From Clostridia bacterium (GTDB lineage Bacteria > Bacillota > Clostridia > Oscillospirales > Acutalibacteraceae), in assembly GCA_900767015.1 (NCBI GenBank), contig CAAFXQ010000261.1, forward strand, positions 1-50,475: 50,475 bases of DNA, written 5' to 3'. Each line of letters opens with the position of its first letter. The stretch's first letter is position 1. Shown here one piece after another: positions 1 to 34,600 of this stretch. The position numbers and the translations under genes are program-made. Under the pieces are notes generated by a model. That model was not told the origin of the DNA. It saw nothing but the letters and a program-made list of their open reading frames with translations, and searched no databases.

Positions 1-16
1 ATTCGAAAGTAACCAC
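1..16 (-). CDS. 5' end of a second small hydrophobic-peptide gene (paralog of 317..415); the rest runs off the left edge
   Basis: The minus strand reads AAGGGAGGTG-ataagca-GTG GTT ACT TTC GAA T = (M)VTFE.., which aligns with VTYEN of the complete copy. It is preceded by the same promoter/leader element (41..121). Confidence 0.35.
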
Positions 17-40
17 TGCTTATCACCTCCCTTGCGGGAG

Positions 41-121
41 TAACCGCCTACCGTTATGTACAGTACCCTTGGCAGTCAGAGACTGCGTACTATTTATATC
101 ATTCATTGCGGATTTTGTCAA
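41..121 (-). repeat. Copy A of an 81-nt duplicated promoter + 5' leader element
   Basis: Hand alignment with 449..529 shows 2 mismatches in 81 nt. Flanking sequence (22..40 and 122..160) is also similar but more diverged. Confidence 0.85.
93..121 (-). promoter_or_regulatory. Sigma-A-type promoter of the copy-A peptide gene
   Basis: On the minus strand: TTGACA (116..121), 17-nt spacer, TATAAA (93..98). Confidence 0.5.
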
Positions 122-200
122 ATTCACAAAGCAAATTTTGTCTACTTTGCAAATTCCCGTTTATGTAAGAGTATTAAAACAGATCAAAACTTTTCAACAG

Positions 201-229
201 TTGACAAAACGAGGAAAACAGCATATAAT
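201..229 (+). promoter_or_regulatory. Consensus sigma-A promoter convergent with the 317..415 peptide gene
   Basis: TTGACA (201..206), exactly 17 nt, TATAAT (224..229). No plausible protein ORF lies downstream (only ATG ATA AGT TAA). Confidence 0.6.
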
Positions 230-235
230 AAAGAC

Positions 236-328
236 ACAAGGGTACTGCGATAAGCGGTTACAAGCCCTCAAATGATAAGTTAAAAGATTTAACCGTCAGT
301 TTGGTAGGCTGGGCGGTTATTTCTTTTT
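236..328 (+). ncRNA. Putative ~90-nt antisense RNA overlapping the stop codon and 3' UTR of the peptide gene (candidate type I antitoxin)
   Basis: It would start ~7 nt after the 224..229 -10 box and end at the hairpin plus U-tract at 290..328. It has no coding potential and is antisense to the last codons (KKK-stop) and 3' UTR of 317..415. There is no expression evidence. Confidence 0.3.
290..328. terminator. Hairpin usable as a bidirectional terminator by the antisense RNA and the peptide mRNA
   Basis: TAACCGTC (290..297) pairs with GGCGGTTA (312..319) (8 bp, one G-U) around a 14-nt loop. It is followed by TTTCTTTTT on the + strand and by AAATCTTTT on the - strand. The loop is large, so this is only a moderate terminator. 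Confidence 0.4.
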
Positions 329-415
329 ATGTTCAAGAATTATAACTGTTAATTCTATAATGCTTATGACAACAAGCGAAAATGTCAGTAAATTCTCGTA
401 TGTGACATACTGCAT
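317..415 (-). CDS. 32-aa single-TM peptide resembling holin-like toxin (Hol-Tox) / type I toxin peptides
   Basis: Sequence MQYVTYENLLTFSLVVISIIELTVIILEHKKK: internal Met of track ORF 317..529. GGGGGGTGG SD lies 5 nt upstream. The peptide has a hydrophobic core and a KKK C-terminus. The SD can be sequestered in the CCCTCGCAAGGG hairpin of the leader. Confidence 0.55.
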   Translation of the reverse strand: MQYVTYENLLTFSLVVISIIELTVIILEHKKK

Positions 416-448
416 CTGAACCACCCCCCTTGCGAGGGCAAAGAGTTG

Positions 449-529
449 TAACCGCCTACCGTTATGTACAGCACCCTTGGCAGTCAGAGACTGCGTACTA
501 TTTATATCATGCATTGCGGATTTTGTCAA
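449..529 (-). repeat. Copy B of the 81-nt duplicated promoter + 5' leader element
   Basis: Two mismatches versus 41..121. Contains the promoter and ~79-nt 5' UTR of the 317..415 gene. Confidence 0.85.
501..529 (-). promoter_or_regulatory. Sigma-A-type promoter of the 317..415 peptide gene
   Basis: On the minus strand: TTGACA (524..529), 17-nt spacer, TATAAA (501..506). Confidence 0.55.
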
Positions 530-603
530 ACCTTGTGCACAAGGCGCTTTTCAACTGTTCTCTTTGTCAAATTCACCAAGCAATTTTTGTCTGCTTCGTG
601 GAT

Positions 604-632
604 TTACTTTTTCCTTTCTAAAGGTATATAAT
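604..632 (+). promoter_or_regulatory. Possible promoter of the symporter gene
   Basis: TTACTT (604..609), 17 nt, TATAAT (627..632). The -35 box is weak. Confidence 0.3.
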
Positions 633-666
633 GATTATTTGAGAGAGAATGAAAGGAGAAAACTTT

Positions 667-2139
667 ATGAAACAGGAAACCAAAATCCTCACCACAAAAA
701 AAGCGCTGATTTATGCCGTCGGCATCTTCGGCGTTCAGCTTTTCATCGGCTACATGAACAGCTTTCAGACCGAGTTTTACAACAAGATGTACTCGGGCTT
801 TGACGGCAACATTTTTTACGCCTCGGCTGTCATCATCTTCGCTGCGAAGCTCATCAGCTGTATTTTCGACCCGCTCATCGGCGCCATGATCGACAAAAGC
901 CATCTGAAAGGCGGAAAAATGCGGCCGTGGGTGCTTCGAAGTGCGTTCCCGCTTGCGATTCTGACGACGCTGATTTTCATCTATATCCCCTTTGACTCGT
1001 TCGGCTCGGCAGGTAAGCCTTTGCTTTACGCTTACATAACGCTGACGACCGTGCTTTGGAATATTGCCATGAGCTTTGCCGATATTCCGTCGCAGGGTAT
1101 GCTGTCGCTTTTGTCTCCGAACGCCGACGAACGAAACGTCGCCGCAAGCTTTTCGAATATTGCAAAGTCGGTCGCCCTTGCCGTACCGGGCGTATTTGTG
1201 ACCGTTATCATGCTGATGCTCAATCTCATCAAGGGCGAGGGCAACTATCCCGACAAGGAATACTATCTTGTGACGGCGCTTGTCATGCTCGTTCTCGGAA
1301 CTTCCCTTTATCTTTTGATTTATTTCTGTAACCGTGAGACCGTTGCGAGCGGTCAGTCGGCTTCCTCAGTCTCGTTTAAAGAGATGTTTTCCGAAATCAA
1401 GACGAACAAAATGATTCTGATTGTCTTTCTGATCTATATCCTCGGCTTTGCCAGAACGATGCCGCTTATCGTCTGCGTTCAGGCGAACGGCGCTCTTATC
1501 GGCAAGGTCAGCCTGTTGGGTCTTACTATGGACACAACCGCCGACGCCACTTGGCTTCCGGGCCTTTTAGGGGGACTTACGGGCATTATCGGTATCAGCA
1601 TTGTGCCGCTTATCAATAAGAAGCTCGGCGAGAAGAAAACCTATATCGGCTTTTCGGTTGCCACGTTTGTTTTCACCGCCGCCTGCTGTATTTTCTATTG
1701 GCTTGTCCCGGCTGACAGCGCCTTACGCTACGGCAACGCCGCCTTGTTCATGGTCATGATTATGCAGTTTTTCTCGTCGTTCTTTATGTCGGCAAACACC
1801 TACATTCCGCTTGTTATGACGGCGGACATCGTTGATTGGCAGCTTTGGAAAACCGGCAAGAGAAAAGAGGGCGTAAACTTTGCGATTTTAAGTATGGCAA
1901 TCAAGCTGAGCAATGCGCTTTGCGTCGCCGCCGGTCTTCTGATGATTGCCGTTTCGGGCTATACGCAGGTCGTTTATGAGACGGGCAGTATTCCTCTAAG
2001 AACGCAGAACATCATCATGTTCGCTTTCCTGGGCTTTGCCGGCGTTTCGTCGCTTATCAGTGCCGTACCGATGCTGTTTTACAAGATTGACGAAAAGACA
2101 AAGAAGCAAATGCACGAGGCGGTCAGCGTATCGGAATAA
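667..2139 (+). CDS. Glycoside-pentoside-hexuronide (GPH) family / MFS sugar:cation symporter
   Basis: Multi-TM protein with the GPH loop motif DPLIGAMIDKS..GKMRPWVL. Start moved to the ATG at 667 (MKQETK), which has AAAGGAGAA 6-7 nt upstream; the track start at 649 has no SD. Confidence 0.85.
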   Translation: MKQETKILTTKKALIYAVGIFGVQLFIGYMNSFQTEFYNKMYSGFDGNIFYASAVIIFAAKLISCIFDPLIGAMIDKSHLKGGKMRPWVLRSAFPLAILTTLIFIYIPFDSFGSAGKPLLYAYITLTTVLWNIAMSFADIPSQGMLSLLSPNADERNVAASFSNIAKSVALAVPGVFVTVIMLMLNLIKGEGNYPDKEYYLVTALVMLVLGTSLYLLIYFCNRETVASGQSASSVSFKEMFSEIKTNKMILIVFLIYILGFARTMPLIVCVQANGALIGKVSLLGLTMDTTADATWLPGLLGGLTGIIGISIVPLINKKLGEKKTYIGFSVATFVFTAACCIFYWLVPADSALRYGNAALFMVMIMQFFSSFFMSANTYIPLVMTADIVDWQLWKTGKRKEGVNFAILSMAIKLSNALCVAAGLLMIAVSGYTQVVYETGSIPLRTQNIIMFAFLGFAGVSSLISAVPMLFYKIDEKTKKQMHEAVSVSE

Positions 2140-16600: not shown

Positions 16601-19600
16601 TTACTTGAAGACTGAGAAGATCTTCTGGAAGAATGCCTTGATCTTAGCAAGAAGCTTCTGGAACCAGTTGAGTGTCTTTTCACCTTCGTCAACAGCGTCA
16701 TGGTACTGATCGTGGTCACCGATGGTGTCGTTCCATGTGCCGGTGATTTCTTCCATTACCTGAGCGATGCTGCCGTAGATACAGGTGTCATTCGAACCGA
16801 GTGCGTCGAAGATTTCCTGATAGATCTTCTGGATCTTGTTGATGTCGCCGCTGAATGCTGCGTCAACCTGAATGGCAATTCCGAGAGCCTGGAAGAGAGC
16901 TGCGACGATGATGTCGGGTACCTCATACTTCGAGCAGGTATCGAACATCTTGTCGATGCCGTAGGCTACGGTCTGCTTTGCACCGCTCTGGAGCATGAAT
17001 ACATCTGCGAGCCAGTTGACGAGTGCTTCACGGTTGTGAGCATCACCGAACATCTCAAGAGCCCAGGTGATAACAAGTGTCAGCGTGTCACCCTTATCGG
17101 ATACGATGAAGGTCTGCGTCGACTTGTTGGCCCAACCGTCATACTTGCCGGTGCCGTAATCGTTGATGTACGGGAACGGATCAGTCGGTGTGGTGAAGGA
17201 GTTTGCAGAGTACGAACGTGAGGTTGCAACTTCCTTCGTTGAGGTGCCGCCCTCCTGAGCAAGCTTGTAGAAGTCGATTTCAGGAATCTTGAAGTCATAC
17301 TTCTGACCGAGTACCTGAATGTTGAAGCCGATGTTGTGGAGAAGCTTAGAAACATTGAGCATGCTTACGAAGTCCATGTTATAAGCTCTGCCGACAAGTT
17401 CAAGGATTGAGAATACAGGTGCTACGATATTTCTTACGGCAAGGTATACGCCTTCGTTGGAGATGAAGTACGCTACGTTCGGAAGTATTGTTGTAAGCGT
17501 ATCGACAGGTCTGTCGAGAAGTCTTTCAGCAAATACGCCGATCTTGGTAAGGATATAACCGATTACCTGCGTGTGATCCTTTTCACAAAGAGCCTTGTAC
17601 TCGTTGTAAGTAAGAACCTCTTCAGCGGTGAGGCCGAAGGCTTCGAGAATCGGGATAATACCGTAGTCGTAGCCGTTGCCGCCGCCGATCTTGACGATGT
17701 CAAGAATGTTGAGTGCTTTGCCTTCGCCCATGAGGAGAAGTTCAAGTACGGAGTTGAGCGGAGTCAGAACGTCGGTAAGAACTCTCAGGAAGCCCTGGAT
17801 GTCGCCGTCCTTGATGCCCCAGTCGGTGCCAGCGAAGGAGCCGACGTCAGCCCATGTTCCGTCTTCCTTGGCTGCCGCCGCTTCAAGAAGCTTAGCGCCG
17901 TTGTTCAGGAATACGTTGCCGGCCTGATACTTGGAGGTATCGGTGTAGTAATCGTAGTTGTCGATGAACTTAGCGTAGTAGCCCTGAACGGTGAAGTCAA
18001 GGTCAGTTTCTTCGGTGCTCATGCTCTTAACAACGTTAAGAATATTTGCTACCGTCGAGCCGCCGAGAAGCGGTACGAGCTTATCAAGAAGAAGGTTGAT
18101 TGTTGCATTGTTGATGTACTTCTGACCGAGCAGGCCCTTGAGTGAACCGAAGTCAGTCTTGCCGAGAATCTTCATGATCAGATCATCAAGGTTGTTGGCG
18201 ATGATGTCTGCATTGGCTTCTGTCAGCATGATGTACGTCGAGTAATCGAACTTCTTGGTCTTGATGGATCTGTTCTGTACGGGGATGTAGGAAACGTCTC
18301 CGCCGCCGATGAGATCAACGATAATATCGATAAGCTTGGTCGGATCCTTAATGATTTCCTCAATCAGCGAATCAATCGGTTCACCGAAGCCGTCAGGCTT
18401 GCCGAGGATTTCAAGAAGCTTCTCGTAGTTCTCCTGCGTGAGGATAAGCTTAACGAGGGTTACGAAGGTGTCTGCCGGATCTCCGACAACGTTCTGATAG
18501 TCAGCGCCGTTGTAGATATCGTACTTCGTGCTCATGGAGGAGCCGGTCATGTCGATAAACTTGTCGCCGTCGGTGTTAGCTGCTGCGGTTGCCGCAAGCT
18601 TGAGCCAGTCAAGCTCGAGGGTGATGCCGAGCGGCTTGCCGTTAATGGCGATACCGGCAAGTACATTGTTGAGAAGTACTGCAAGGTCGCTGCCCTTAAC
18701 GGTGATCTGTACGCCTGCGTCAACGCCCGGATGTGCCTTGCCGATGTAGGTTTCTGCGATCGACTTGTCAGTACCGATGTTGCCGAGGTTTACGTTGATA
18801 GCGATCGGGAAGATCGGGTCAACAGCTTCGAGAAGGTTGTTTACAGGAGCGATGAGGTTCTGAACGATCGTTTCAAGGTTGTCGTTGCCGATTACATAGC
18901 AGAGGTTTGCAAGAATCGGAAGAACGTTTGCGATCGGTTTGTCGAGAATCTCGTCTACCTTTGCGAAGACAGCGTCAAGGATGTACTTGAGGGTGCTGCC
19001 GTGGTTTGCTGCAACGTAGGCTTCATATTCAGCCTGAGTCTTGGCGCTGATGCCGAGAAGCTCAAGAACCGGAATGACTGCGTAGTTGTAGCCGTTGCCG
19101 CCGATAACGTTGATTTCGTCAAATGCCGTAATCTTGCTGCCGTTGTGTACGCCGGTCTTTTCGAAGGCTGCTCTGTCTGTGCCGCCCATCAAGAGGAGAG
19201 CCAGAACACCGTCGAGCGGGAGAAGCATATCACAGACAAGGTTTACAAGGTCTGCGGTTGAGGTGATGCCCCAATCGAAGGCTGTTGCAGTTCTTGTAAC
19301 GGTTCCGTCTTCAGCGGTGGTTTCTTCACTGTGTGCAAGCCATACTTCGTTCCAGGTCTTGGCTGTGCCGATGTAAGCGGCAAGCTTCGAGCCGAACTTG
19401 GTATTTGTGAAGGCCTGCGGGTTGATGTCAAGGTCAGTCAGGTTTGTAAGCTGATGTACATAACCGATGACCTGATCAATTGTTTCAGCCGGAAGTCCCG
19501 AGAGAAGCTTCGCAATCGAGGAGACAAGGAGGTTCGCAATGTCGTCCTTAACGAACAGCGGATAAACGATGTCCTTAAGGCTCGAGTTGCTGCCGTCGCC

Positions 19601-22600
19601 GATGAAGCCGAGAACAACCGGGATAATGGAGTCAAGGTTCATGAGAGCTTCGTTGAGCTGCTCGTGAGACTTAGCGCTTGAATAGGTTACTTCGATCTTT
19701 TCGAGCTGCGGCTGGTTGTAAGCCTTATACTCTACAAGATACTTCTTCAGAAGCTTAACGAGAATCTTGGCAACGTCTTCGCTCTTTCCGTCAAGCGAGA
19801 GAATGATATCTCCGGCTGTGGAGGTTGTGTCGAGGTTCAGCGTTGTGCAAAGGATCTTCAGGAAGTCTTTGGTGAGAACCGTATCAAGTACGTACAGCAA
19901 GGTGTCGCCGTTTTCAACGTGCCACAGGGTGACGTCATCGTCAACATTCAGTGCACCTGTCGGAGCGTCAATTCTGACTGCCGCCTTGGCAAGCTCTTCG
20001 AAGAAGTTGGTCGGGAGAGCCTTGATGACGTATACGGTTTCGCCGGTCTCGCTGTCCTTGATTTCAATCTTGCTGAGAAGATCATTGATAAGGTTGATGA
20101 GGTTTTCGCCCTTGTTGCCTGCGATGCCGATGATGTCGCTCAGTCCCATACCGATGAAGCCCTTCAGAAGGCCGTCGATCTGATCTCTTGAGATGACGCC
20201 ATCGAGTGCGTCGAGGATACCGAGTACAGGAGCCGCAAGGTTCTGGATTGCAATTTCGACGTCGTTGTTAGCGATGAAGAAGCTCAGGTTGCCGACAACC
20301 GTAAGGATCGTCGAGAACGGAGCCGCACATACTTTGTCAACGAGTGCGAATACATAATCGAGAACGTTTTCAACTGCCTGATTTGCGGTAGCCGCATCCT
20401 TCTTGGCTACGCCGAGATCCTTAAGGCCGAGGCCTGTGATGATCAGCGGTACAAGTGCCGACTCGTAAGCGTTGCCGCCCTTGAGGCTGAGACTTGTGGA
20501 TTCATCAACGCTGATCTTGAGATCCTTACCGGTGAGCAGGAAGGCCAGTACGCTTTCAAGCGGAGTAAGGAGATCGAGAACGGTGCTTACGAATGCATCC
20601 TTGCTGCCGACTCCGGTGAATACCGGATCGATCTTGACGATTGCGTCGCCGTTTTCGTCAACTTTGCCTGTCTCGTGGCTGTGAGCCTTGAGAACGTCTG
20701 CCCATGTTACGCCTGCTTCTGTGTCAGCCGGAGTAACGGTTACATAAGCGATAAGCTGTGCGTTGCCTGTTGCCGCTGCGAAAGCAGTCGGGGCAAGGTT
20801 TACGCCAAGAAGTTTGTTCAGCGTATTCGCAAGGTCTGCGGTCAGGAAGCCGGCGAGAGCCTTGACAAGTGCGCTTGTGATGGTTGCCATCATATCGTCG
20901 GTGAAGAGCATCGAGCCGAGGAGATAATCTACGATGTCTGCAAGGTCTGCGTCTGCCTTACCTTCGATAGCCTTTGCAATCTTTTCAAGGAGCGTCCACT
21001 CTGCTTCATCCTTTGAGGTGTCTGCAAGCATGGTGATCACTACCGGAGCTGCCTTGTTGAGTACCTTGTCGAGGCTTACGATTGCATCGTCAAGACCGTC
21101 GATGTTGTTGAAGTCAACAGTGCCGAGGAACTTGTAGATGTACGGAAGAATGGTCACATCGTAGGAGCCTGTCAAAATCAGGACAACGGTTGCAACAAGG
21201 TTCTTGATTGCGTTCGGGTCATTGAGAATGTCGTTAATGATATTCTTGATGGTTTCGTCAAGGGTTACATCCTTCAGAAGTCCCTCAACGAGGTTCTTGA
21301 TGTTTTCGCTGTTTTCCGCCGTGAGAGCAGTATCAAGAAGTGTTACCAGCGTATCAGCCGGGTCACCGGTGATATTCTCGAGGTCATCGCCGTCTTCACA
21401 AACAGGATACTTCGTATAGTCCTGCTTGGTGTCGATGGTGATGATATTGCCGGCACCATCCTTCTTAGCCATCTTTGCGGCAAGAGCGTTCCAGTCGAGG
21501 TCGAGTGAAAGCTTAATCTCAGTGCCGTTGATGTTAAGCGAACCGATTGCCTTATTGATGAAGTCAGCCAGTGCTTCACCGGAAACATTGATGCTGATTC
21601 CGTCGGGGATACCGTCGTGAGCGACGCCGATGTAGGTATCAACAATCTTTGCGGCCGCAAGGTCGATGCGGATTGCGATCGGATATACATCGTCGATCTC
21701 ATCGATAAGGGTGTTAACCGGAGCAAGAAGGTTTTCAGCGATTGTGTTGATGCCGTCAGAGCCGATGAAGTAGAAGAGGTTGGCAAGTCTTGAAAGCAGT
21801 TCGTTTACAGGTGTTGCGAGGATTTCGTCAACCTCTGTGAAGAGAACTTCAAGGATGTACTTGAGTGACGAACCGTCAGTTCTTACTCTCGATTCATACT
21901 GAACCTGCGTAAGCGGGTCAGCACCGAAGGCTTCAAGAAGCGGAAGTACTGCGTAGTTGTAGCCGTAGCCGCCGTTGATTCTGATGTCAGCTCTTCTCTC
22001 TACTTCCGGATCCTCAATGGCTATGATCTGTCTACCGCAAAGGAGAACCTGGAAGACAACATCGAGCGGAGCGAGAAGATCACAGGCGAAGTTTGCAAGG
22101 TCTTCCTTCGTGGAGATCTTCCAATCGAAGGTGCTGTGCATCGTCTTGTTGGCGGTTGCTTCTACGAGGGTTACGGCAACTTCGGCTGTATCCTTGTTGT
22201 TGTCAACGTCAGCCGTCAAAAGGTCAGCCTTGTCGCTGTAATAGTACTCAGTTTTGTCTGAACCGTCTTCAGCGGTTACCGTGTATGAATACTTGTAGGT
22301 CTTAACCTGTGTGACTTCGACGTCAGCGGTCGTGCTGTTGTTGTCAACGTCAGCCATGGTCAGTCCGTCAAGCGTACTGTAATAGGTTGCAGCCTTACCG
22401 TTTGCGTCAGTGTAGGTGTATACATACTTCGTGTATGTCTTTTCAACGTCTTTCCATGTGACTTTTGCAAGTTCTGCATCGGAAATGCTTCCGTCGCCGT
22501 CAGCGTCGGTGGCCGCAGCCGTGATGAAGTTCTTCAGCTGTGAGCCGAACGTGTCGTTTGCGAATACCGACGGGGCAAGACTACTGATACCAAGGTTGGT

Positions 22601-25600
22601 CAGTTCGTTGACATAGGAGAGAATGTCTTCAAGGTTAAGCTTGGCGAGAACCGGAACAAGCAGGTTCATCAGAAGGTTGCCGAGGTCAGCGTCGCTGATA
22701 AGTCCGTCGATGAGGGACTTCAGGTCGCCTACGCCGAGCATTCCGAGTACGCTTACAAGAAGCGGATCGAGAGCCTTGATTGCGTCAGTCGTGTTCTTGT
22801 GGTCAAGTGCACCGTAGTACGGAGCCGTTGCCGTACCAAGGTCAGCCTGCTGAATTCTCTTATAAGTGATGCTGTAATCGTTCAGGAGCATGATGATGAC
22901 GTCTGCCAGATCATATTCCTTGTCAGCGAGTGTCAGGAGCGTTGCGCCGAGGTCTTCGCTTGTATTAACGCCGACCTTCGTGAAGATGGTCTTCAGGAAG
23001 TTTTCGTCGAGTACGGTTGCGAGGATATACATCAGAGCGTTGCCGGTGTTGACATCCCAATCGTTTGTCTCTGTACCGATGTTTGCGTCTGCGTGGACAA
23101 CATCCTGAACGTCGATTGCATATTTGCTCAATTCAACGAAGAAGTCCTCAGGCAGCAGGTTGATTGTGTAAATTACTTTATCGTTTTCATCTTTGATTTC
23201 AATGCCCTTAATGAGCTCATTGATGAAGCCGATAAGGTTTGCGCCGCCGTTATTACCGATTTCGATAATATCGGTCAGACCCATTCCGATTAAGCCCTTC
23301 AGGATTCCGTCAAGCTGGTCTCTCGAGATGATCGAAGAGGCCAAGTCAACAATACCGAGGATCGGAGCCGCAAGATTTTCGATAAGCGGCTGGAGATTGT
23401 CGTTGGCGATGAAGAAGCTGAGGTTGCTCAGAACGCTGAGAATCGTTGTAAGCGGAGCTTCACAGATCATGTCAACGAGTTCGAATACATAGTCAACCAC
23501 ATTGCCGATTGCTTCGTTAGCCGTTGCCGCAGAGTTCGTTTCAATGCCGAGCGCTCTGATCAGCGGGTTGATTGCCTTTTCGAAGGCTCTTCCGCCCTTA
23601 AGCTGGATACCCTCAATTTCGAATTCGAGCGGTGTGCCCATGAGAACGAAGGAGAGGATCGGTTCAAGCGGCTTGAGAAGGTCAAGTACGAGACCGACGA
23701 AGCTGTCCTTATCGTTAGCAGCCCAATCGTAAGGCTTGAATTTATATTCGGTATCACTGATCTTGTCTGCTCTGAGAGCAAGAACATCGTTCCATGTTGC
23801 ACTGTCGCCGACATAGTTGATTACCTTGCTGTTGCCGGTTGCGGCGGCAAACGCCTTAGGAGCAAGATCAATACCGAGGAGATTATCGATTGTCTTGGTA
23901 AGGTCTGCGGTGAGAGCACCGGCAAGAGCCTTAACAATTGTGTTAATGAGTTTCGAGAAGGTGTCGTTGTTGAAGGCATACTCTGTAAGTGCCCAGTTAA
24001 CAATGCTTTCAAGCGTTGCATCTTCGCCGACACCGTCTGCAAGCTTCTTCAGGAACGAGTCTTCTTTTGCCGTTGCGCCGAGGATCTTGACGACGGTCGG
24101 AACAGCTCTGCCGATCATGTTGTCGAACTTCTCAATGGCCGTATTCAGGTCATTCATCTTGCTGTAATCGCTGAAGTCAAGTGCGCCGAGGAAGGCGTAG
24201 AAGAAGTCCTTGCTGTCATCGACATTGTACTGGCCGCAAAGGACGAGAACAACAACACCGATGAGGTTTTCAATCGCATCCGGGTCGTTCAGAACGTCAT
24301 AGATGATCTGAGCGATTGTCGAATCGAGCGAAGCCGGGATAAGCGACTTGATCAGAGCGGCAATGCCTTCGGTGTTATCCGCCGTAAGGATTGTCTGAAG
24401 AAGTGTAATGAAGGTATCGACTACATCGCCTTCAATGTTTACATAGTCGTCAACTTCGTCCTTGTTGGTAACTTCGCCGATGTTGTAAACCTGCTTGGAC
24501 GGGTTCTTGACAAGTTCGGCGCCCAAAGTATCCTTTTCAGCCGGATCCTGGGTTCTTGCCATCTTGGAAGCAATTTCGTTCCAATCAAGGTTCAGCGAAA
24601 GGTTGATGACGCTGTCACCGATCTTGATTGAGCCGATCGCCGAGTTGATAAGATCAGCAAGGTCTGTCGAAGCAACGTTGACGGAAAGACCGGCCTTGAG
24701 ACCCGGATGTTCTTTTCCGAGATAGGTTACAAGAATCTTGCTGTTGTCAACGCCGAGCATATTCAGGTCGACAGAGATGGCAAGCGGATATACATCGTCG
24801 ATTTCGTCAATCAGAACGTTGATCGGAGCAACGAGGTTGGATACAACACCGTTGATTCCTTCAGAGCCGACGAAGTAGAAGATATTTGCGAGTTTTTCGA
24901 GAAGAGTCTGAACCGGAGCGTTCAGAAGGTCTTCAACCATTGTGACGATTTCATCAAGAATGTACTTGATTGACGAGCCGCTGTAAATACTGTCAATTGA
25001 CGCATCATAGTCGGCCTGTGAAAGCGGGTCAATTCCGAAGGCTTCAAGAAGCGGGATAATCGCATAGTTGTAGCCGTTTCCGCCGTAGATTCTGATGTCA
25101 TTTTCGTCCGGATCCTGGAGAACGATGATCTGATCGCCCTGAAGAATGACTCTGAAGATGATGTCGAACGGAAGAAGCATATCACAAACAAGATTTACGA
25201 TATCTTCAAGACCGTTGAGCTTCCAGTCGAAATCGCTCTTGACAGCTGTTACCTGCTTGTCGGTTTCGACTTCGTTGCCTTCAGCGTCGGTTTCTTTTAC
25301 ATAGACCGGCTTCAGGTCGTAGGTCTTTGCATCTTCGCCTTCGCCGACAATGTACTTGGTTTCACCTTCTGCGCCGTAATAGGACTGTTCCTTACCGTCG
25401 GCGTCAATGTAGGTGTAAGCATATTTCGTGTATTTCGCCTGAACGTCACTCCATGTCTTGGCGTCGCCGATGAAGTTGGCAAGCTGGCTGCCGAACTTAC
25501 CGTTTGTGAAGGCTGCCGGAGTGATGTCAAGGTCAATGTTGGTGACTTCCTTAACATAGCCAAGGATCTCAGCAATGTCAACGCTGCCGTTGTCAAGTTT

Positions 25601-28600
25601 GGCAAGAACCGGAACGAGCAGGTTCATGACAAGGTTGCCGAGGTCAGCTTTCTTGAGAAGATCATTGATGATGCTTTCAAGTGTTGCGCCGTTGCCCTTA
25701 ACAAGGCCAAGGACTGTCGGGATAATTCCGTCGATTGCGGTAAGAGCACTTTCGATGTTTGTATCGGTAATGCGTGTATCCTTCATCGAAACCGGAATCT
25801 TTGTAATATCCTCCTGACGGATCTTGCTGTACTTGATGGAATACTCAGTTACGAGCATTACGATGATATCAACGATTTCATCTTCCTTGCCGGCAAGCGA
25901 CTTGACGACAGAAGCAAGCTGTTCGTTTGTATCAATACCGGCCGCCTTACAGATGAAGTCGAGAATGTCGTCCGTAAATACGGTCTGAAGCAGGTACATG
26001 AGGACATCGGTCTTATCGACGCTCCACTCATTGGTGGGTTTGTCTACTTCGCTGGTATCCTTAACGTCGATGCCGTACTTGCTCAGTTCTTCGAAGAAGT
26101 CAGCGTCGAGAAGCTTGGTAACCGGTGTTGTTCCGTCAGGTCCGACAATGTTCAGACCGGCGACTGCTTCGTTAATCAGTGCAACAAGTTTTTCACCGTG
26201 TTCACCGGCGATGGTCGTAATGTCTTCAATGCTGATCTTCAGATAGTTCTTCATAATCGCATTGATGTCGTCCATGGTTACGATGTTTTCAACGATTGAA
26301 AGCAGGCTCGTAATCGGAGACAGCAAGCTGTTGAGTGAAGTTTCTATACCGTTGTTAGCGATGAAGAAGGACGCACTGCCGACGAGTTCAAGAATTGTTG
26401 AAAGCGGAGCTTTTTCGAGCTTGTCGACAAGTCCGAAGATTCCGTCAACAACTTCTCTGATCATATCGTTCGAGGTGGCAATCTGATCACCGGCCTTCAG
26501 GCTGATGCCGAGTGCCTTACCGAGCGGAACGATGGCATTGTCATAGGTGTTTGCACCCTTGAGGACGAAGCCGTCAATGAGTACTCTGATGTTTTCGCCG
26601 CGAAGCAGGAAGTCAAGAAGATCTTCGAAGATCGCAGTCAGTTCATAAACAACGCCGAAGAAGCTTTCCTTGTCAGTTACATTCCATACGTAGTCAAGAA
26701 TGACCTTCGTTTTCTGATTCTCTGATTCGTCAAGATCCGGAGTAAGCGAATATTCCTTACCGTCGATTGTCTCTTTTTGAAGACCCTTGGCACCGTAATA
26801 GGTTTCCGTGATATCCTGGCCTTCCGCATTCTGACCGGTTACATAGGTGTATGCGTACTTCGTATAGGCGTTTGCAACATCAGCCCATGTTAAGCCCTTT
26901 TCGGTATCGGAAGCGGTTACCGTCGCAATCAGACCGGCTATCTTGCCGCCGTTTGCGTTGGAGATTGCTGCTACACCGGCCGGTGTAAGGTCGATTTCGA
27001 CAATCTGATCAACAAGCGTCTGGATAAGATCCATCGTCTTTGCGTCAAGTCCGCCGAGAACGCCGATGAGAAGTCCGACAAGGGTATTGGCCATACCGTC
27101 GTTAAACGCATATTTCTTAAGTGCCCAATCAACAATGTTTTCAATTGTTGCGTTGTCACCGAGTGCTTTGTAGATGTCAGCAATCAGCTGGATCGGTTTT
27201 TCCTGCGTTGCAAGAATCTTGATGACCTTCGGAACGGCATTGCCGACGATCTTGTCGAGCTTGCCGATTGCTCTGGTCGTTGAGGACTTCCATACGCCGT
27301 CGTCTCTGTAATCGTAATCTTCTGCGCCGAGATACTTGTAGATCATGACGATCGTCTCGACATCATATCTACCGTTGAGAAGCTTGATGATTGCATCGAC
27401 AAGCGACTGCGGATCCTTGATTGCGTTGTTGATGATATCCTGAAGTTCCTGCGGAAGCTTGGTCAGGTCTACCTTGAGAAGCTTGAGAACCGCATCAATA
27501 TTTTCAGGTGTGAGAATCATTTCGGCAAGAGCAATCAGGGTGTCGGCTGCGTTACCGGTGATATTTCCGCCCGGAGTTCCGATGCAGATATCCCAGTTGG
27601 AGTTGACCTTAGACGGGTTGAGCGTGATTGTTCCGCCTTCGCCAACCGCTACTGCCTGAGCGGCAAGTCTTGCTGTGTTGAAATCAAGGTCAAGAGCCGG
27701 AATGAACTTCTGGATCGCTGCTCTTACAAGTTCCTCAAGTGTTGCGGCGTTAAGGTCGATGTTGACACCGACTTCAGCGTTATGCTGTGCAACCTGGTCA
27801 CCGAGGTAAACCTGAAGAATTTCCGTATTGTTGATAAGACCCATCAGGTTCAGCGTTACCGAAACGGGGATGACGCCCTGAACAGCTTTGATCAGTTCGC
27901 TGATCGGAGCGATCAGGTTCGAAATAATCGTTGTCAGACCGTTCTTGCTTACGGTATACGCAAGGTTTGCGATAAAGCCGAGCAGGTAGTTGAGGGGTTC
28001 GTCAAGGTTGTCGTTGAGTGTCTTGAGGATGGCGTTAAGAATGTAAGCCAGTGAGCTTTCGCCGGTTTCAAGCTGGAGATCATATTCAGCCTGAGTATAA
28101 ACGTTCTGAACACCGAGTGCTTCAAGAAGCGGGATAATAGCGTAGTTGTATCCGCTACCGCCCATGATGTTGATTTCTCCGAACGCACCGAGCGAGTCAC
28201 CGTATGTGCCGTTTGCAGCGAAATTATAGGTTCCGCCGGAAAGGAGAAGCTTCAGGATCGGATCGAACGGCTTCAGAAGTGCGGTAACAGCGTCAACAAG
28301 AGCTTCTGCTTTTGCATCCTTACCGACTGCCGCCGAAACGCCCCATTCGCAGTTGATATTGAGCTTCGTGATCGGCTTGCCGTCCTTAAGCTCATATTCC
28401 TTATCGCCAATTGTTGCGGTCGTAAGTCCGGGAGCGCCGTTGTAGGTTGCGGTTTTATCCTTACCGTCAGTATCCTTTTCGCCTGTAAGGTAAGTGTACT
28501 GATATACCGGTGTCAGTTCGACTTCCTTATCGCCAATGTTTGCTTTAAGAAGGTCTTTTGCACCGTAATAGGTTGCTGTGATATCGTTACCTTCCGCATC

Positions 28601-31600
28601 CTTTTCACCGGTCAGATAGCTGTACTCATATTCAGTGTACGTATCTGCTACTTGCTTCCATGTTGTGGATTCACCGATAAAGGCTTTCAGTTCCTTGGAG
28701 AGCTTTGCATAGCCCTGCGGGGTGATGTCGATATCAACATTGATGATATCCTTTACATAGCCAAGTACGGTGTTGATCGTATCCCATGTTTTGTCGTCAA
28801 GATTTGCAATCAGGCCGACAAGAGCATTCAGGATAAGATTTACGATATTGTCTGTGTAGAGATACTGATTCAGAAGGCCTTCAAGTGAGCCGAACTCGAA
28901 AATGCCAAGAATTGCGCCGATAAGATCGTCAGCATTGTTGATTGCATTCAGAGTGTCCGCTTGTGTTACCGTACGTTTGCTGTAATCGATAACAATCTTC
29001 TGAAGTGCCTCAGCAGGATCTTCGATCGCCTTATATTCAACAACATACTTGTTCAGAAGCTTGATGAATACATCGACGATGTTCGATACAGCGTCTTCGC
29101 CGGTTACGTTGTTGATGATCTGCTGAACGATTTCAGGTAGTGACGCCGTCATATCGGACGTTACAAGCTTACCGAGAATGTCATCGCTCAGTACGAAGTC
29201 GATAAGGCCGGTAAAGATGTACTTGTGAGAACCGACAATTGTCGTAATCTTTCTGCCGGCTGCGGCAAGCTGTTCCTCGGTAAGGACATTACCGTCTTTG
29301 TCAACGTAACGGCCTTCGTCGTCAATAAGGGCAATGTTCGCATTCGATCTCAAGGAATCAATAACCTTATATTCACCGATCTTGCCTGCAAGGTCGAAGA
29401 GCATGTCGGTTGTGATTCTGATGTCGATGTTTGCTTTTGCAAGTGCCTCATTGATCGTGGAAAGAAGACCCTTTTCACTTCCGGTGTCTTCAAGCTTGAG
29501 CACGTTGAAGTGGAGTCTGATACCGCCTTCGTAATAGATCGGGTCAATGACAGCCGCAACAGCGTTGATGGCGCCAATCAAGGTGTCAACAAGCTTGAAT
29601 ATGCCGTCGTTTGCAATGTAGTAAACGAGCGAAGCAAGGTTGTCGGAAAGGAAGGCAACAGGATCTGCTACAAGATCGTCAACAAGGAAGAATACAAGCT
29701 TGAACAGATAGTCAAGCAATTCTTCGACGGTCTTAATCTGGTTGAATTCAGCCTGTGTCTTGATTTCGCCCGGATGCTTATCTGCGCCCTGAAGCGTATC
29801 AACAAGCGGAAGAATTGCAATCTCGTAGCCGTTTGTACCCTGAAGTCGGATATAACCGTTTCCGATGATCTTATCGTCGTCAGTCGGTGATACGTCTTCT
29901 TCATCAACCTTAACATAGGATTCAGCCGTATGTGAGAAGATTGAAAGGGTCTTGCCCTGCGTTGCTACCTGAAGAATCGGGAAGAGCGGGTAAAGGATTA
30001 CAGAAAGGGCAGCCTTGAAGGTTGCAAGATCTTTTACACCGAAGTCAAGCGTCGGAAGTTTTCCGTCTTCCGGAGCTGTGTTGCGGTCAACAACTTCCTG
30101 CCAAGTCTTGCAGTCGCCGATAACTTCTGCCATTGCGATGGTGCGCTTATCGGCTGCGCCGTAGTGCGCCTTAATCAGACTGATATAGCCCTGCGGATCA
30201 AGCGTGTAATCGCCGTAAGTGAAGACGGTGAATACAAGATTTACAATCTGAATGTTGCATACCGTCGGGATCAGTCTTGCGATCATTGATGTCATTTCAT
30301 CGGTATAAAGCTTACCGCTGAGAAGTGCATCAACAATGCCTCTAAGGGAAGCGGTATCACTTTCCGTGAGACTGTCAAGATATTCGCAAAGGAATGTGTA
30401 AATTACACTGGGTTTTTCTGTCTCTCCGGTTGCTTCGTCTGTCTTCGGCGCAAGAAGCGTCTTAAGAATCGGAAGCAGGGTCGGGATAGCATTGTCAATT
30501 ATTGTATCAAGCTGTGACGGAACATTCTCGATCTTGTTTTTCTGGTCAGCAGTAAGTTCGTCATATGCGGAATGATCCGGCGTGATGAGCTTACCGTTCA
30601 GCTCTGCGTACGTTACTTCGTAGCCTTCGAAGAGCTTGGTGACGATATCGGAAACAACAAGTCCGTTGAAGTTGCCGTTGATGAGGTTGTTCAGAATGAC
30701 GGAGATTGCGTTGCCTTCATCGTTAAGATCCGCATTAAGCATATCGGCAATAACACCGAGAATGTCTTCTGAAAGAACCGTATCAAGCAGGAATACAAGG
30801 GAGTCAGCGATATCAACACTGAAGTTTTCAACAACGTAGCGTTCACGGGTAACTGCACCCATTGTTGCAAGGTCATAATCGGTTGAAGCAACCTTGACTG
30901 ACTTGCCGGTTACAGGATCGTTGTACCAGTAATACCACTTGGAGTTGTTGTTTGATTCGTTGATCTTAATCGTATGCTGAGCGTACGACTCGAAGGTTGA
31001 GTTGTCGAGAACCTGAAGGGTTTCGTACTGCTCGCCGTCTTCCTTGCTTGTTACAAGGAAGGAGGAAACAAGCTTATTGATGATCGTTACAAGGTTCGAA
31101 CCGTTTTCACCGGCGATGCCTGTGATTTCCTTAACTGTGTAAACCTTGTAGGTTTCTTTCTTGGTTTCACCTGTTTCAGGATCAGTAACGTCTCTTTCGT
31201 ACGGTGTACCGGCATCGGCAGGCATGTAAGGCTCAAGATACGGGCTTACAAGCGGTCCGATCAGGTTGTCAAGGATAGGACCGACAACCGGCTCGGCAAG
31301 ATCGAAGATTGCAAAGATCGGTGAAAGCAGGTTTTCAAGGAAGAACTGAACACCGTTACAGGAGATGAAGTAGGACAGTGACGGAAGAAGAGTGAGAATG
31401 AACTCAATCGGCTTCTCGCAAAGGGTGTCAATGACAACGAAGATGGCATCGGTCAATGCTGTCAGCGTTGTGGCTGTGCCTCTTGCTCCGTTGTAGGTTG
31501 ACGGGTCAACAAGCGTACCGCCGGCGAACTGGTCAACAGCAAGAGCCTGAAGCAGCGGATAGATTGCGTTTTCATAACCGTTGTTGCCCTTGAGTGTGAG

Positions 31601-34600
31601 AACAGCATTTTCGCCGTGTTCATCGGTGAGGATCTTGATGTCGTCACTGCGGAGTACGAAGTTGAGAATCGGTTCAAGCGGATTGATGAGACCGGCAAGA
31701 ATGCTTACAAATGCATTCTTTCTTGCATTATAATCGCCATCGATGCCCCAATCATAAGCTTCGCCGCCGACTTTCGTCTCTCTTGCATCGTTTTCAGCGT
31801 CACGGGTAAGCGTATATTCGGTCGTGGTTTCACCGGAGGTTACTTTATAAACAGTTTCATCCGAGTTCGTGAAGGTAATCGTCTTAACGACGTCTTTGCC
31901 GCTCTCCGTTACCGTATAAGTATAAGCGTAGTTTACAATTTGCTCGAGAGGATAAGTCTCGCTGCCTACTGTATAGGTTGTTGCATCCTTATTTCTCAGA
32001 TATACCGTCTCGGTTGTTTCTTCGCCATCAGCACCGTTTACCGTATAGGTATAGCCGTAAGCCGTGTAATAGGAAACAACGTCAGCCCATGTTGCGGTAT
32101 GCGGTTTTGTTGTCGGGTTGCCTTCCTCGTCGAGAACCGGTTTGCCGTTTTCATCGAGAACCGGATCCGTTGCGGGAGCAGCATCAACAGCAGCGCTTAT
32201 AAATTCGTTGAGCGCATCGGACGAAGTGTGCGTAAACGCTTCGGGAGAAATGTCCAGACCGACAACGTTGTCAAGAAGCGGAATAAGGGTTGCGAGCGTA
32301 CCGCTGAGGTTTTCGCCGCCGAGAAGTCCGATCAACATGCCGATAAGCGAGGTCATCGTTTCATTGTTGAATGCATAAGCGTTGAGAATGTCATGAACAA
32401 GATCTTTCAGACTCTGCTTATGGTAGCCGCCGATCTTATCAAGTATAGCGGCAAAGGTATCGTTGCTTTCAAGCAGCGGAACAAGGTTCGGGATTGCGGC
32501 AAGAAGCGCCTTATCGAACTTCTTAATGGCACGTCTGAGCTTACGCTGTGTAAGGGTTGTGCCTTCTACATAGTCGGTATATGCATAGTCGGCCTTCTTG
32601 AAGGACAGGTATTCAAGAGCCATTGTCTCAACGTCATAATCGTTGAAATACTTCAGAAGAACCTTGAAGATGACATAGCGGTTGTCGCCGGTTACGGCAT
32701 TTATAATGGTTTCAACATTTTCGTTCAGCGTTACACCGAGTGCGGCAAGAATTCCCTTGAGGAATTCACCGCTGAGAACTGTCTCACTGACAATCTGGAT
32801 AAGCGTATCCGCACGATTTGCAAGAACACCCTTGACAACACGAGTGTTGGAGGAGGTTACGGTTGCACCGAAGTAGCGGACTGTTTCGACGTCTGTGATC
32901 GTGCAGCACTTGCCGATGATATCTTTGAAGAGCGTTTCGATCTTAAAGTCGCCGAGGTCGACGGTTACGCCCTTATCTTCCTCATATTTTGCAATGACTT
33001 TCTTGAGAAGGTTCTGAAGTCCTTCTGCGGTCAGGAAGACATTGACAAGACCATAGATATCGGATACATGGTCAAGACCGAGAGCATCCATAACCTTCGT
33101 GTTGATGAGGTCGGTAATGAGGGCATAAATGTCGAGAGCAACCAGTGCATCCTCTCTGCCGTCAACGTTGATTTTCTGAGCGGTTACATCGTTGACAAGG
33201 TCAACAAGCGTGATGATCGGAGCGACAAGCTGTTCAACGCTCTGTGCGAGGCCTTCGGAATAGATGAAGAAGAACAGCTGCGGAAGAGCATCAACGATTG
33301 TCTGAATCGGTGAGAATGCGATCTTCGAAATGATGGCATCGATGTAGGAAATAACCTTAGCGGTGAAATCATTGTCTGAAAGTTCGGCAAATTCATATTT
33401 ATCCATGATGTTTTCGATACCGAATACTTCAAAGAGAGGAACTATGAATCTGTCGTAGCCGTCGCCGGCAGTAATGGTGATACCGTCAAGAAGAACAAGG
33501 TTATCTTCCGTGAGCATCAGTCTGAGAACTTTTGCAAGCGGGGTGAGAATGTCAGCAAGAAGATCAAGAACATCCTGATACTCCTTGATGCCGAAGCTGT
33601 TTGCGTTCTTCAGTTCAACATCATACTGATATTCGAATACCGGGTTGCCGTCGGTGTCTGTTTCAACAACATAGGCGCCTTCGATTACATCACCTGTTCC
33701 GTCACCGGCGGTTGTGTAGTATGTTGTGTCACCAATCTTAACGATCGTACTTGTCGTTGTTGCCGGGATCTGCTTACCTTCTGCGTCAAGTTCATAAACC
33801 GGCTTGGAGGTATCATAGATGAATCCGTCTTTGTCCTGAGCCGGAACAATAATTTTACCTTCGCTGTCTTTTTCAGCAGTTGTTTCGTCAAATTTAACTT
33901 TAACCTTGTGTGCCTCATAAGCATCTTCCCATGTCTCGCAGTCTGCGAAATAGGTAGCGAATGCCGGTGAGGAAGCCTTGAAGTATTCGAGCGAAAGGTC
34001 AAGGCCGGGAACGATTTCCTTAAGCATCGGGATAACCGTTACTAAAGTTTCGTTTCCGCCGAGAAGCTTAACGAGCATCGCAACAAGCTTTGTCATGTTG
34101 CCGGTCGTGACAACGGTTTCGCCGTCAACCGTTGTGCTACTGTCGGCAAGAAGTCCGACAACAAGGTTGTGGAGAATTTCTTCTACGCTTGTGCCCTCAA
34201 GCTTAAGCGAGCCAAGTGCACCCTCGGGAAGCATTGTCATGACGGCCGGAAGAATAGCGTTAACAAGGGAATCAAGGTCAGCCGGAAGCTTTTCAAGCTG
34301 TGCCTTGTCAATGCCGATATTTTCGTAATCGATCGGGTCAGCCTGTGCAACTTCTGAATAGTCTGTCTTGGTTCTCTGCGCACGGTATTCAACTTCGTAC
34401 CATGAAAGCAGGTCGATAACCAGTCTTTCCACCGCTTCTGCATCGTCGAATACGCTGTACAGAAGAACGGTAAGAAGATAGTTGTCGTCTTCCTTCTGAA
34501 TGGTGGTCAGGGAATCGAAGTCAATGTTCAGAAGACCGCCGACTGTGTCACGGACACCTGCATTGAATACAACCCAATCAAGAACCTTCAGAAGTACGGT

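Follow-up and report, generated by a model that had tools for sequence, protein, structure and literature searches.

What is encoded by the two short, directly repeated cassettes at the left edge of a 50,475-nt stretch of DNA from a Clostridia bacterium of the Acutalibacteraceae (GCA_900767015.1, contig CAAFXQ010000261.1; the whole stretch is hereafter called the window), and how might their expression be kept in check? A first-pass annotation had proposed a type I toxin-antitoxin (TA) like layout, in which a leader sequesters the Shine-Dalgarno sequence (SD) of a peptide gene and a convergent small RNA (sRNA) overlaps its 3′ end. Our analysis makes it likely that these are chromosomal type I TA cassettes of the BsrG/TxpA ('Hol_Tox') kind, with a proposed mechanism in which the sRNA and the toxin leader compete for one segment of the toxin mRNA.

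Both strands were read directly. Two direct copies of the cassette lie on the minus strand within window positions 1-640, and each comprises a sigma-70 promoter, a 5′ hairpin, a leader, an SD locked in a GNRA hairpin and a tiny open reading frame (ORF) for a hydrophobic, Lys-tailed peptide. The parts of cassette B and then of cassette A are located as follows.

529..524 and 506..501, minus strand: cassette B toxin promoter, -35 TTGACA and -10 TATAAA with a 17-nt spacer, from sequence.
494..480, minus strand: 5′-terminal hairpin of toxin mRNA B, GCAGUC-UCU-GACUGC, predicted by folding.
469..479, minus strand: leader segment X, CAAGGGUGCUG, predicted 5′ strand of long-range helix H1, from duplex prediction and covariation.
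448..465, minus strand: leader core, AUAACGGUAGGCGGUUAC, from conservation.
461..450, minus strand: CGGUAGGCGGUU within the leader core, near-invariant across the family, predicted 5′ strand of helix H2, from conservation.
439..421, minus strand: SD hairpin B (as RNA GCCCUC-GCAA-GGGGGG), with anti-SD GCCCUC 439..434, GCAA (GNRA) loop 433..430 and SD GGGGGGUGG 429..421, from sequence and folding.
ATG 415 to stop 319..317, minus strand: toxin ORF B, 32 aa, MQYVTYENLLTFSLVVISIIELTVIILEHKKK, the complete copy.
121..116 and 98..93, minus strand: cassette A toxin promoter, TTGACA and TATAAA with a 17-nt spacer, from sequence.
24..86, minus strand: cassette A leader, with 5′ hairpin 86..72, X 71..61 and core 57..40, from sequence and as a repeat of B.
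40..27, minus strand: cassette A SD hairpin, CUCCC-GCAA-GGGAG, with SD GGGAGGUG 31..24, from sequence.
1..16, minus strand: start of toxin ORF A, GTG 16..14, (M)VTFE and then off the window edge, from sequence.

The promoter, leader, SD hairpin and tiny ORF match almost base for base what the first-pass annotation had described for both copies, including the completeness of the 32-aa copy B and the truncation of copy A. Promoter and leader are 98% identical between the copies over 83 nt (40-122 and 448-530), and a further repeat pair (114-162 and 563-611) shows 80% identity. The leader of cassette B is ~80 nt long, and its peptide consists of a 19-residue hydrophobic stretch and an HKKK tail. 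On syntenic contigs the cassette A peptide is complete with 27 aa, MVTFELLVAFTVMLIQLITLCYLIFKK, and full-length homologues occur in the related loci L001, L018, L025 and L038. It had also been anticipated that annotation would miss the cassette, which holds, but the 70-aa ORF listed at 317..529 in the ORF track joins the genuine 32-aa ORF to non-coding leader sequence that is open in the same frame. Public databases contain the cassette as 58-70-aa 'proteins' because gene callers read the leader in this way, a systematic mis-annotation. As a protein query the 70-aa ORF drew only five near-identical database entries; peptide databases thus hardly reveal this family, and relatives had to be sought by DNA patterns.

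A genome scan keyed on the 18-nt leader core yielded 33 loci, mostly in metagenome-assembled genomes of Acutalibacteraceae/Oscillospiraceae from gut and rumen and often on several contigs per genome. These loci hold 37 unique complete cassettes, often several per genome; L026 and L033 were rejected as apparent chance matches, the rest of the cassette being missing. A metagenome scan keyed on the sRNA side only (core of the 3′ untranslated region (3′UTR) plus antisense promoter) gave at least 120 matches and at least 66 further unique cassettes. The relatives in both sets keep the promoter, the leader, the SD hairpin, the Lys-tailed hydrophobic ORF, the bidirectional terminator and the antisense promoter, and at the level of sequence this bears out the layout first proposed. 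TTGACA-17-TATAAA/TATAAT is found at the equivalent position in most related cassettes, and the stem of the 5′ hairpin is kept with differing sequences elsewhere, e.g. GAUGC/GCAUC and GGAAC/GUUCC. The leader element CGGUAGGCGGUU is exact in 51 of the 66 cassettes retrieved via the sRNA side, among the matches listed.

The opposite strand carries a convergent gene for a predicted antisense RNA, which shares its terminator region with the toxin transcript. The features that bear on the interplay of the two RNAs are these.

201..229, plus strand: antisense sRNA promoter, TTGACA-17-TATAAT, a 12/12 consensus match.
236..329, plus strand: predicted ~93-nt antisense sRNA (putative antitoxin) starting at ~236, from its fold and conservation.
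291..329, both strands: bidirectional terminator T1, stem 291-318 and sRNA U-tract 319-329, from folding.
237..269, minus strand: leader-pairing element of the toxin 3′UTR, with GAGGGC 269..264 (H3), GUAACCGCUUAUCG 261..248 (H2) and CAGUACCCUUG 247..237 (H1), from duplex prediction.

The promoter had been called perfect at first sight, and rightly so; a looser scan (at least 9/12) finds five sites in 1 kb versus 2.0±1.7 in shuffled sequence. Of the 37 unique cassettes, 32 have a perfect TATAAT as antisense -10 box, placed 16-17 nt away from TTGACA; the spacer sequence shows no conservation (0-0.7 bits). The sRNA is kept in every complete cassette and is predicted to fold into a 5′ stem-loop domain (239-269) and the terminator (291-329), with a z-score of -3.98. 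An RNA of ~90 nt ending at a shared bidirectional hairpin, as envisaged before, agrees with this fold, but the hairpin is shifted from the 290..328 given then to a stem at 291-318. Its U-tract is complementary to the HKKK codons of ORF B, confirming the complementarity to the KKK codons seen earlier. The sequence thus predicts that, as in type I systems, an antisense RNA is encoded in cis, has a promoter and a terminator to itself and overlaps the toxin mRNA.

In cassette B the U-tract of T1 is poor on the toxin strand (UUAAAUCUUUU) and good on the sRNA side (UUAUUUCUUUUU). In 15 of 39 cassettes the toxin strand has another clear intrinsic terminator, which encloses the -35 box of the sRNA promoter. 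It is very probable that the toxin mRNA continues past the 'shared' terminator and that its 3′ part pairs with its own leader; neither this nor the likeness of the sRNA 5′ domain to the leader, described below, was part of the first-pass annotation. The toxin-strand 5′ arm of T1, UAACCGCC, overlaps the stop codon, and its sequence complements the leader core; (A/U)AACCGCC is found at the stop codon in 21 of 36 and in 29 of 52 unique cassettes among the matches listed. In folds of short mRNAs the leader core also pairs with this arm, and one may speculate that such pairing could promote read-through.

In the DNA, the leader and the sRNA 5′ domain appear as an inverted repeat. Over its first ~30 nt the sRNA (AAGGGUACUG-CGAUAA-GCGGUUAC...) repeats the leader (AAGGGURCUG-UACAUAACGGUAG-GCGGUUAC...) in the same sense. 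Since the repeats are inverted, both RNAs are same-sense and cannot pair through these segments. It is the toxin-strand complement of the sRNA 5′ domain that can pair with the leader, over ~25-30 bp, and the 3′UTR element at 237..269 (minus strand) is the exact complement of that domain. The predicted helix begins with H1 (X:X′, 9-11 bp), followed by a 5-7-nt bulge and H2 (13-14 bp), in which CGGUAGGCGGUUAC pairs with GUAACCGYYUAUCG including two G·U pairs. H3 is usual and reaches the anti-SD in types A and B or the first leader element in types C and D. X and the segment after GGUUAC vary between cassettes and co-vary in leader and sRNA.

Several observations argue for this long-range helix. 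It is part of the minimum-free-energy fold in 12 of 12 long mRNAs folded, and the leader:3′UTR duplex (mean -45.0 kcal/mol) is more stable than its mirror duplex of sRNA and leader complement (-36.8 kcal/mol) in 36 of 37 cases. When 14 diverse cassettes are aligned with no gaps, 95.8% of the cells are paired and compensatory changes occur in 10 of the 11 H1 pairs; none of 500 shuffles scored as high, and slid controls reached 30-48%. Among the matches listed, 44 cassettes from the sRNA side have 93% of the cells in H2 and H3 paired (0/500 shuffles as high, slid controls 29-49%), and cognate X:X′ combinations in the metagenome set form 8.35 of 9 pairs versus 6.26 for non-cognate ones optimised alike. 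The cells that are not Watson-Crick are G·U rather than A·C, 43:3 in the first instance and 152:15 in H1 and H2 of the metagenome set, again among the matches listed. These substitutions were taken from duplex- and column-based counting, global pairwise alignment of leader and sRNA being noisy. As G·U far exceeds A·C, the helix is placed on the toxin-sense RNA, and the excess argues against plain gene conversion or neutral paralogy of the inverted repeats. Judged from sequence, the helix would be an unusual and well-supported RNA feature. A conserved pairing of 5′ leader and 3′ end of the hok/sok type is thereby found, provided that the mRNA reaches position 237.

A different reading of the same type I TA locus is that the mRNA ends at T1, that the sRNA acts mainly in trans via its 5′ domain, and that the likeness of leader and sRNA reflects a shared fold. 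The sRNA's copy of the anti-SD, which is GCCCUC in B and ACUCC in A, would then pair with the SD, as SprA1AS does in Staphylococcus aureus. This fits the finding that the sRNA segment after GGUUAC copies the cassette-specific anti-SD or first leader element, and T1TAdb lists Fst/RNAII and SprA1/SprA1as with an interaction outside the overlap. T1 is shaped like a classical bidirectional terminator, and 13 of 39 cassettes have a good toxin-strand U-tract there. The anti-SD copy is, however, buried in the outer stem of the sRNA and would offer only 5-6 bp to the SD. The G·U excess fits pairing of the leader with the toxin strand and not mimicry alone, and the second toxin-strand terminator of 15 cassettes lies past the sRNA promoter. 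We therefore regard an mRNA ending at T1 as rather unlikely.

The SD is predicted to be closed throughout. Partition-function folding predicts an SD accessibility of no more than 0.33 in every cassette and state modelled. These models describe a toxin mRNA whose SD would be sequestered both by a local hairpin and by long-distance pairing, as in type I systems. The long-range helix was also considered as an ON switch that frees the SD by capturing the anti-SD, and this was rejected on the folding results. Since the SD stays closed with or without the helix, the ON/OFF claim was dropped and no regulatory direction is claimed.

Could the inverted repeats be a feature of the DNA instead, marking the ends of a small mobile or recombining cassette and kept alike by gene conversion, with no RNA helix? 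The distribution of the cassettes offers some grounds for this. Contigs that code for the mis-called proteins share synteny with the window (MFS_2 transporter, pyrophosphatase, NrdR) and carry a third cassette 2 kb off with a different peptide, MEYYILLVLILIAATGYILSIKK; at the third-cassette site L002 has yet another peptide between near-identical flanks. Between an abhydrolase gene and its downstream gene, L001 (5290-5610) has a type C toxin and terminator and L002/L003 have a type A toxin, with near-identical promoter/leader and sRNA flanks, which looks like exchange of cargo through recombination within the scaffold. The order of the cassettes is B-A in the window (1-530) and A-B in L001 (2540-3300) and L018 (3790-4630), and the same inter-cassette spacer follows whichever cassette is first; the array is rearranged between them. 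X and CGGUAGGCGGUU are moreover identical across the cassettes of one genome, even with unrelated toxins. On the other hand, gene conversion predicts symmetric mismatches and not a G·U excess on one strand, and the repeats coincide exactly with the parts predicted to be transcribed and structured as RNA. The cassette-adjacent DNA in the contigs read showed no transposase and no target-site duplication, and viral contigs, phage genomes and plasmids gave no cassette matches. A purely DNA-level origin of the repeats is accordingly judged very improbable.

A few relatives depart from the common form. The cassettes of L008 (-805), L016 (-1899) and L037 (+951) are without the usual promoter, 5′ hairpin and X segment and have unrelated sequence (…GUAUCGUGUUCGGCUUUUGUCUGCU…) ahead of the core or the SD; these copies may be degenerate or differently driven. 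The metagenome loci L047, L092, L109 and L123 have the same scaffold with Arg/His-rich, less hydrophobic peptides (MPITLTFHIF..TV.IR...RNRHSAK), and UGACGGUUUCU follows the ORF in place of UAACCGCC. The leader core is also present in L030, positions 1-300 of NZ_JAJEPR010000076 from the cultured Lachnospiraceae strain Fusicatenibacter faecihominis CLA-AA-H277, with a much longer leader and an ORF start, MSILDFIAVVSFGLTCFCAGY..., cut at the contig end. This strain is a possible experimental host.

The encoded peptides are small and diverse. Among the matches listed, 79 unique peptides are 17-50 aa long (median 29), hydrophobic and usually Lys/Arg-rich at the end, 66 of them having at least two Lys or Arg within the last four residues. 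At least six peptide types occur on the scaffold; they do not align with one another, although types A, B and D have a VTYEELF-like N-terminus in common. Codon position 2 is the least variable, with 150 differences vs about 300 in type B and 111 vs 278 in type A, and single-nucleotide codon differences are synonymous:non-synonymous 150:56 in type A and 31:7 in type C. This pattern in the sequences indicates that the ORFs are translated and under purifying selection. Short, hydrophobic peptides of membrane type with a charged C-terminus and selection at the protein level are what is known from type I toxins.

The Hol-Tox relationship suggested in the first-pass annotation was right in kind. Hol_Tox (PF16935) is the only family touched by the window peptide, with 17.6 bits (E=0.0036, model positions 3-33 of 34) against a gathering cut-off of 23.3 bits; among its close relatives the highest score is 20.0 bits. 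The cut-off is exceeded by two peptides that share the RNA scaffold (26.5 and 24.9 bits), and Hol_Tox is hit by 9 of 24 VTYE-type peptides, which hit no other family repeatedly. BsrG of Bacillus subtilis (sequence from PMC4342826) scores 34.5 bits, so Hol_Tox includes this type I toxin, and the analogy to bsrG/SR4 drawn at first pass is apt. From its annotation, Hol_Tox probably also covers the TxpA type I toxins. The window peptide itself is a probable peripheral relative of Hol_Tox by its sequence and not a demonstrated member.

Profile searches gave no toxin-family match for most peptide types (C, E and others), PHROGs gave no significant match for the scaffold peptides and Pfam no Fst_toxin match among the family peptides. 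The peptides might be ordinary small membrane proteins, such as regulators or stress peptides, with an antisense RNA in cis that happens to adjust their expression. Gram-positive bacteria commonly have small membrane proteins (PMC10730256), and toxicity is a prediction from the peptide sequences. Against this stand three predicted layers of repression, namely the SD hairpin, the long-range closure and an antisense RNA from a consensus promoter. The tandem arrangement and the many copies within a genome, the exchange of unrelated peptides on a common scaffold, the Lys-rich tails and the matches to Hol_Tox/BsrG also speak for toxins, and the combination of features is as described for type I toxins (PMC2887945; PMC6563280). 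A non-toxic role is thus considered improbable.

The name 'holin-like' in Pfam, and a weak PHROG holin match (E=0.16) of one unrelated scaffold peptide, also bring to mind the remnant of a phage-type lysis or holin gene. Housekeeping genes (MFS_2 transporter, pyrophosphatase, NrdR and short-chain dehydrogenase) neighbour the cassettes, with no phage context or endolysin partner. A lysis-module location and holin similarity were thus not found, in line with the missing matches in viral contigs, phage genomes and plasmids and the lack of a significant PHROG match. We give this origin hardly any credence.

The interpretation as type I TA cassettes allows the following course of events to be proposed. 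A strong sigma-70 promoter would produce an mRNA for a small, single-helix, Lys-tailed membrane peptide, which would be born translationally silent by virtue of its 5′ hairpin cap and the SD in a local hairpin. The SD lock would have a GNRA loop in types A and B and a four-element version in types C and D. The toxin mRNA would read through the weak toxin-strand side of T1, and its 3′UTR would pair with the leader (X, the CGGUAGGCGGUUAC core and the adjacent anti-SD region), closing the mRNA 5′ to 3′. The convergent consensus promoter would give the ~90-nt sRNA, fully complementary from the last ORF codons via the terminator into the 3′UTR. As the sRNA is complementary to the 3′UTR strand of the closing helix, it would have to displace the leader to bind; the two would compete for one 3′UTR segment, the sRNA with a perfect match and the leader with a wobble-containing one. 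Binding would create a ~90-bp duplex, from which, by analogy with bsrG/SR4 and txpA/RatA, RNase III-dependent decay is to be expected while the SD is kept closed.

A bolder and more tentative extension is that the antitoxin sRNA is a molecular mimic of the toxin leader that opens the 5′-3′-closed mRNA, and that the cassettes form a genome-wide, cross-reacting network on a plug-in scaffold with recombined toxin ORFs. Because X and CGGUAGGCGGUU are identical within a genome, each sRNA could cross-react with every toxin mRNA.

Some points weigh against the type I interpretation and its mechanism. Beyond the observed architecture, conservation, coding signature and helix covariation, the transcripts, the mRNA end, toxicity, RNase dependence and direction of regulation are inferred for all members. 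A strict terminator scan of the cassette B toxin strand found none at T1 or beyond. Mean SD accessibility barely shifts, 0.15 vs 0.11, and the SD is slightly more closed when the sRNA target is blocked. The G·U excess could in principle stem from a strand-specific C-to-T mutation bias of the toxin-sense strand, and part of the covariation from gene conversion between the inverted arms. Cassettes closely related to that of the window keep the helix (90.5% paired) with scarcely any covariation, too little for their alignment to be informative, and the covariation evidence comes from the more distant cassettes. The window peptide stays below the Hol_Tox cut-off, BLASTP of the peptide against BsrG gave no alignment, and hhalign of the 24-peptide profile against BsrG alone gave a non-significant probability of 2.9%.

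How do the cassettes compare with characterised systems? Hallmarks of type I TA loci are a local anti-SD hairpin, a 5′-3′ long-distance interaction and a 3′-overlapping antisense RNA (PMC8594479; PMC6563280). The closest resemblance is to bsrG/SR4 and txpA/RatA of B. subtilis, with convergent genes and a 3′ overlap. BsrG, too, is small and hydrophobic, with xTYExL at the N-terminus and KKK as its tail, the bsrG SD also lies in a short double-stranded region, and the antitoxin RNA pairs with the 3′ part of the toxin mRNA, as is predicted here. SR4 is dual-acting on mRNA decay and translation (PMC6563280), and the overlap in bsrG/SR4 is about 120 nt with RNase III-dependent decay (PMC4342826). 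The present cassettes differ in that their hosts are Clostridia (Oscillospirales, some Lachnospiraceae) and not Bacilli, and in their shorter peptides (21-35 aa), the window copy being under the Pfam cut-off. Nucleotide or Rfam similarity to bsrG/SR4 and txpA/RatA was not found and no antitoxin RNA model was matched: Rfam gave no relevant match in window 1-1200 with E up to 10, and none at the gathering score in nine related loci. Neither did a literature search with the core sequences or an NCBIfam search give a relevant match. The sRNA here appears wholly nested in the toxin 3′UTR, whereas full nesting is listed in T1TAdb only for Gram-negative families. A further difference to bsrG/SR4 is that the sRNA 5′ domain is a same-sense leader copy, so that the sRNA must compete with the leader:3′UTR helix. 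To our knowledge, such a leader-copy sRNA competing with a leader:3′UTR helix is not described for bsrG.

Closure of the mRNA by pairing of the leader with the 3′ end, with an inaccessible SD, is in principle shared with hok/sok and AapA1/IsoA1 (PMC8594479). Unlike in hok/sok, the antisense RNA here would target the 3′ strand of the closing helix, and the host is Gram-positive. In hok/sok, the target of Sok is the 5′ region, and the mRNA is activated by trimming at its 3′ end. SprA1/SprA1AS of S. aureus and Fst/RNAII (par) of Enterococcus faecalis have convergent genes and a shared terminator in common with the cassettes; functional contacts can lie outside the overlap there, and the anti-SD-like sequence of the sRNA here could reach the SD. 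The direct repeats of par give 5′ complementarity, whereas the repeats here are inverted and the RNAs same-sense. With these inverted repeats, and no Fst_toxin or other Pfam match for it, membership in the Fst/RNAII (par) class is not indicated. CD2517.1/RCd8 and its relatives in Clostridioides difficile are alike in their clostridial hosts and convergent, overlapping toxin and antitoxin genes, and their peptides also have a hydrophobic N-terminus and a Lys-rich C-terminus and were overlooked by annotation (PMC6563280). The C. difficile toxins are 50-53 aa long, often on prophages or beside CRISPR arrays, and without homology to other toxins (PMC6563280). The peptides here are shorter, and the cassettes are chromosomal, with no phage link and one invariant RNA scaffold.

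Some further features of the window surround the cassettes. A perfect 14-nt palindrome, CCTTGTGCACAAGG, at 531..544 lies just upstream of the cassette B -35 box, and a ~49-nt spacer repeat (563..611 and 114..162) with an additional TTGACA lies ahead of each cassette promoter; a role as terminator/insulator or as operator is conceivable. A divergent plus-strand promoter, TTTACT-18-TATAAT (603..632, 10/12), with an SD adjoins cassette B, and the gene behind it encodes a 496-aa MFS_2-type transporter (649/667..2139, plus strand). Far from the cassettes, the window holds a giant 9260-aa ORF (16601..44383, minus strand) and, nearby on the same strand, a 1480-aa ORF (45383..49825).

Hardly any type I TA systems are known from the mostly uncultured Clostridia that are dominant in the gut. 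A review of the Clostridia covers essentially C. difficile only, plus a few TxpA- or Fst-like sequences in C. bolteae and C. asparagiforme (PMC6563280). As read from their DNA, the cassettes appear to be a widespread, undescribed clostridial branch of a known TA class, one that is common in gut metagenomes (at least 120 matches), multi-copy and invisible to annotation, and that would link the Bacillus BsrG/TxpA toxins to Clostridia. Such loci can be searched for by a simple signature, the invariant 12-nt leader element together with the conserved antisense promoter. With about 100 cassettes and at least 37 distinct helix sequences, the family may serve as a natural data set on the silencing of toxin mRNAs.

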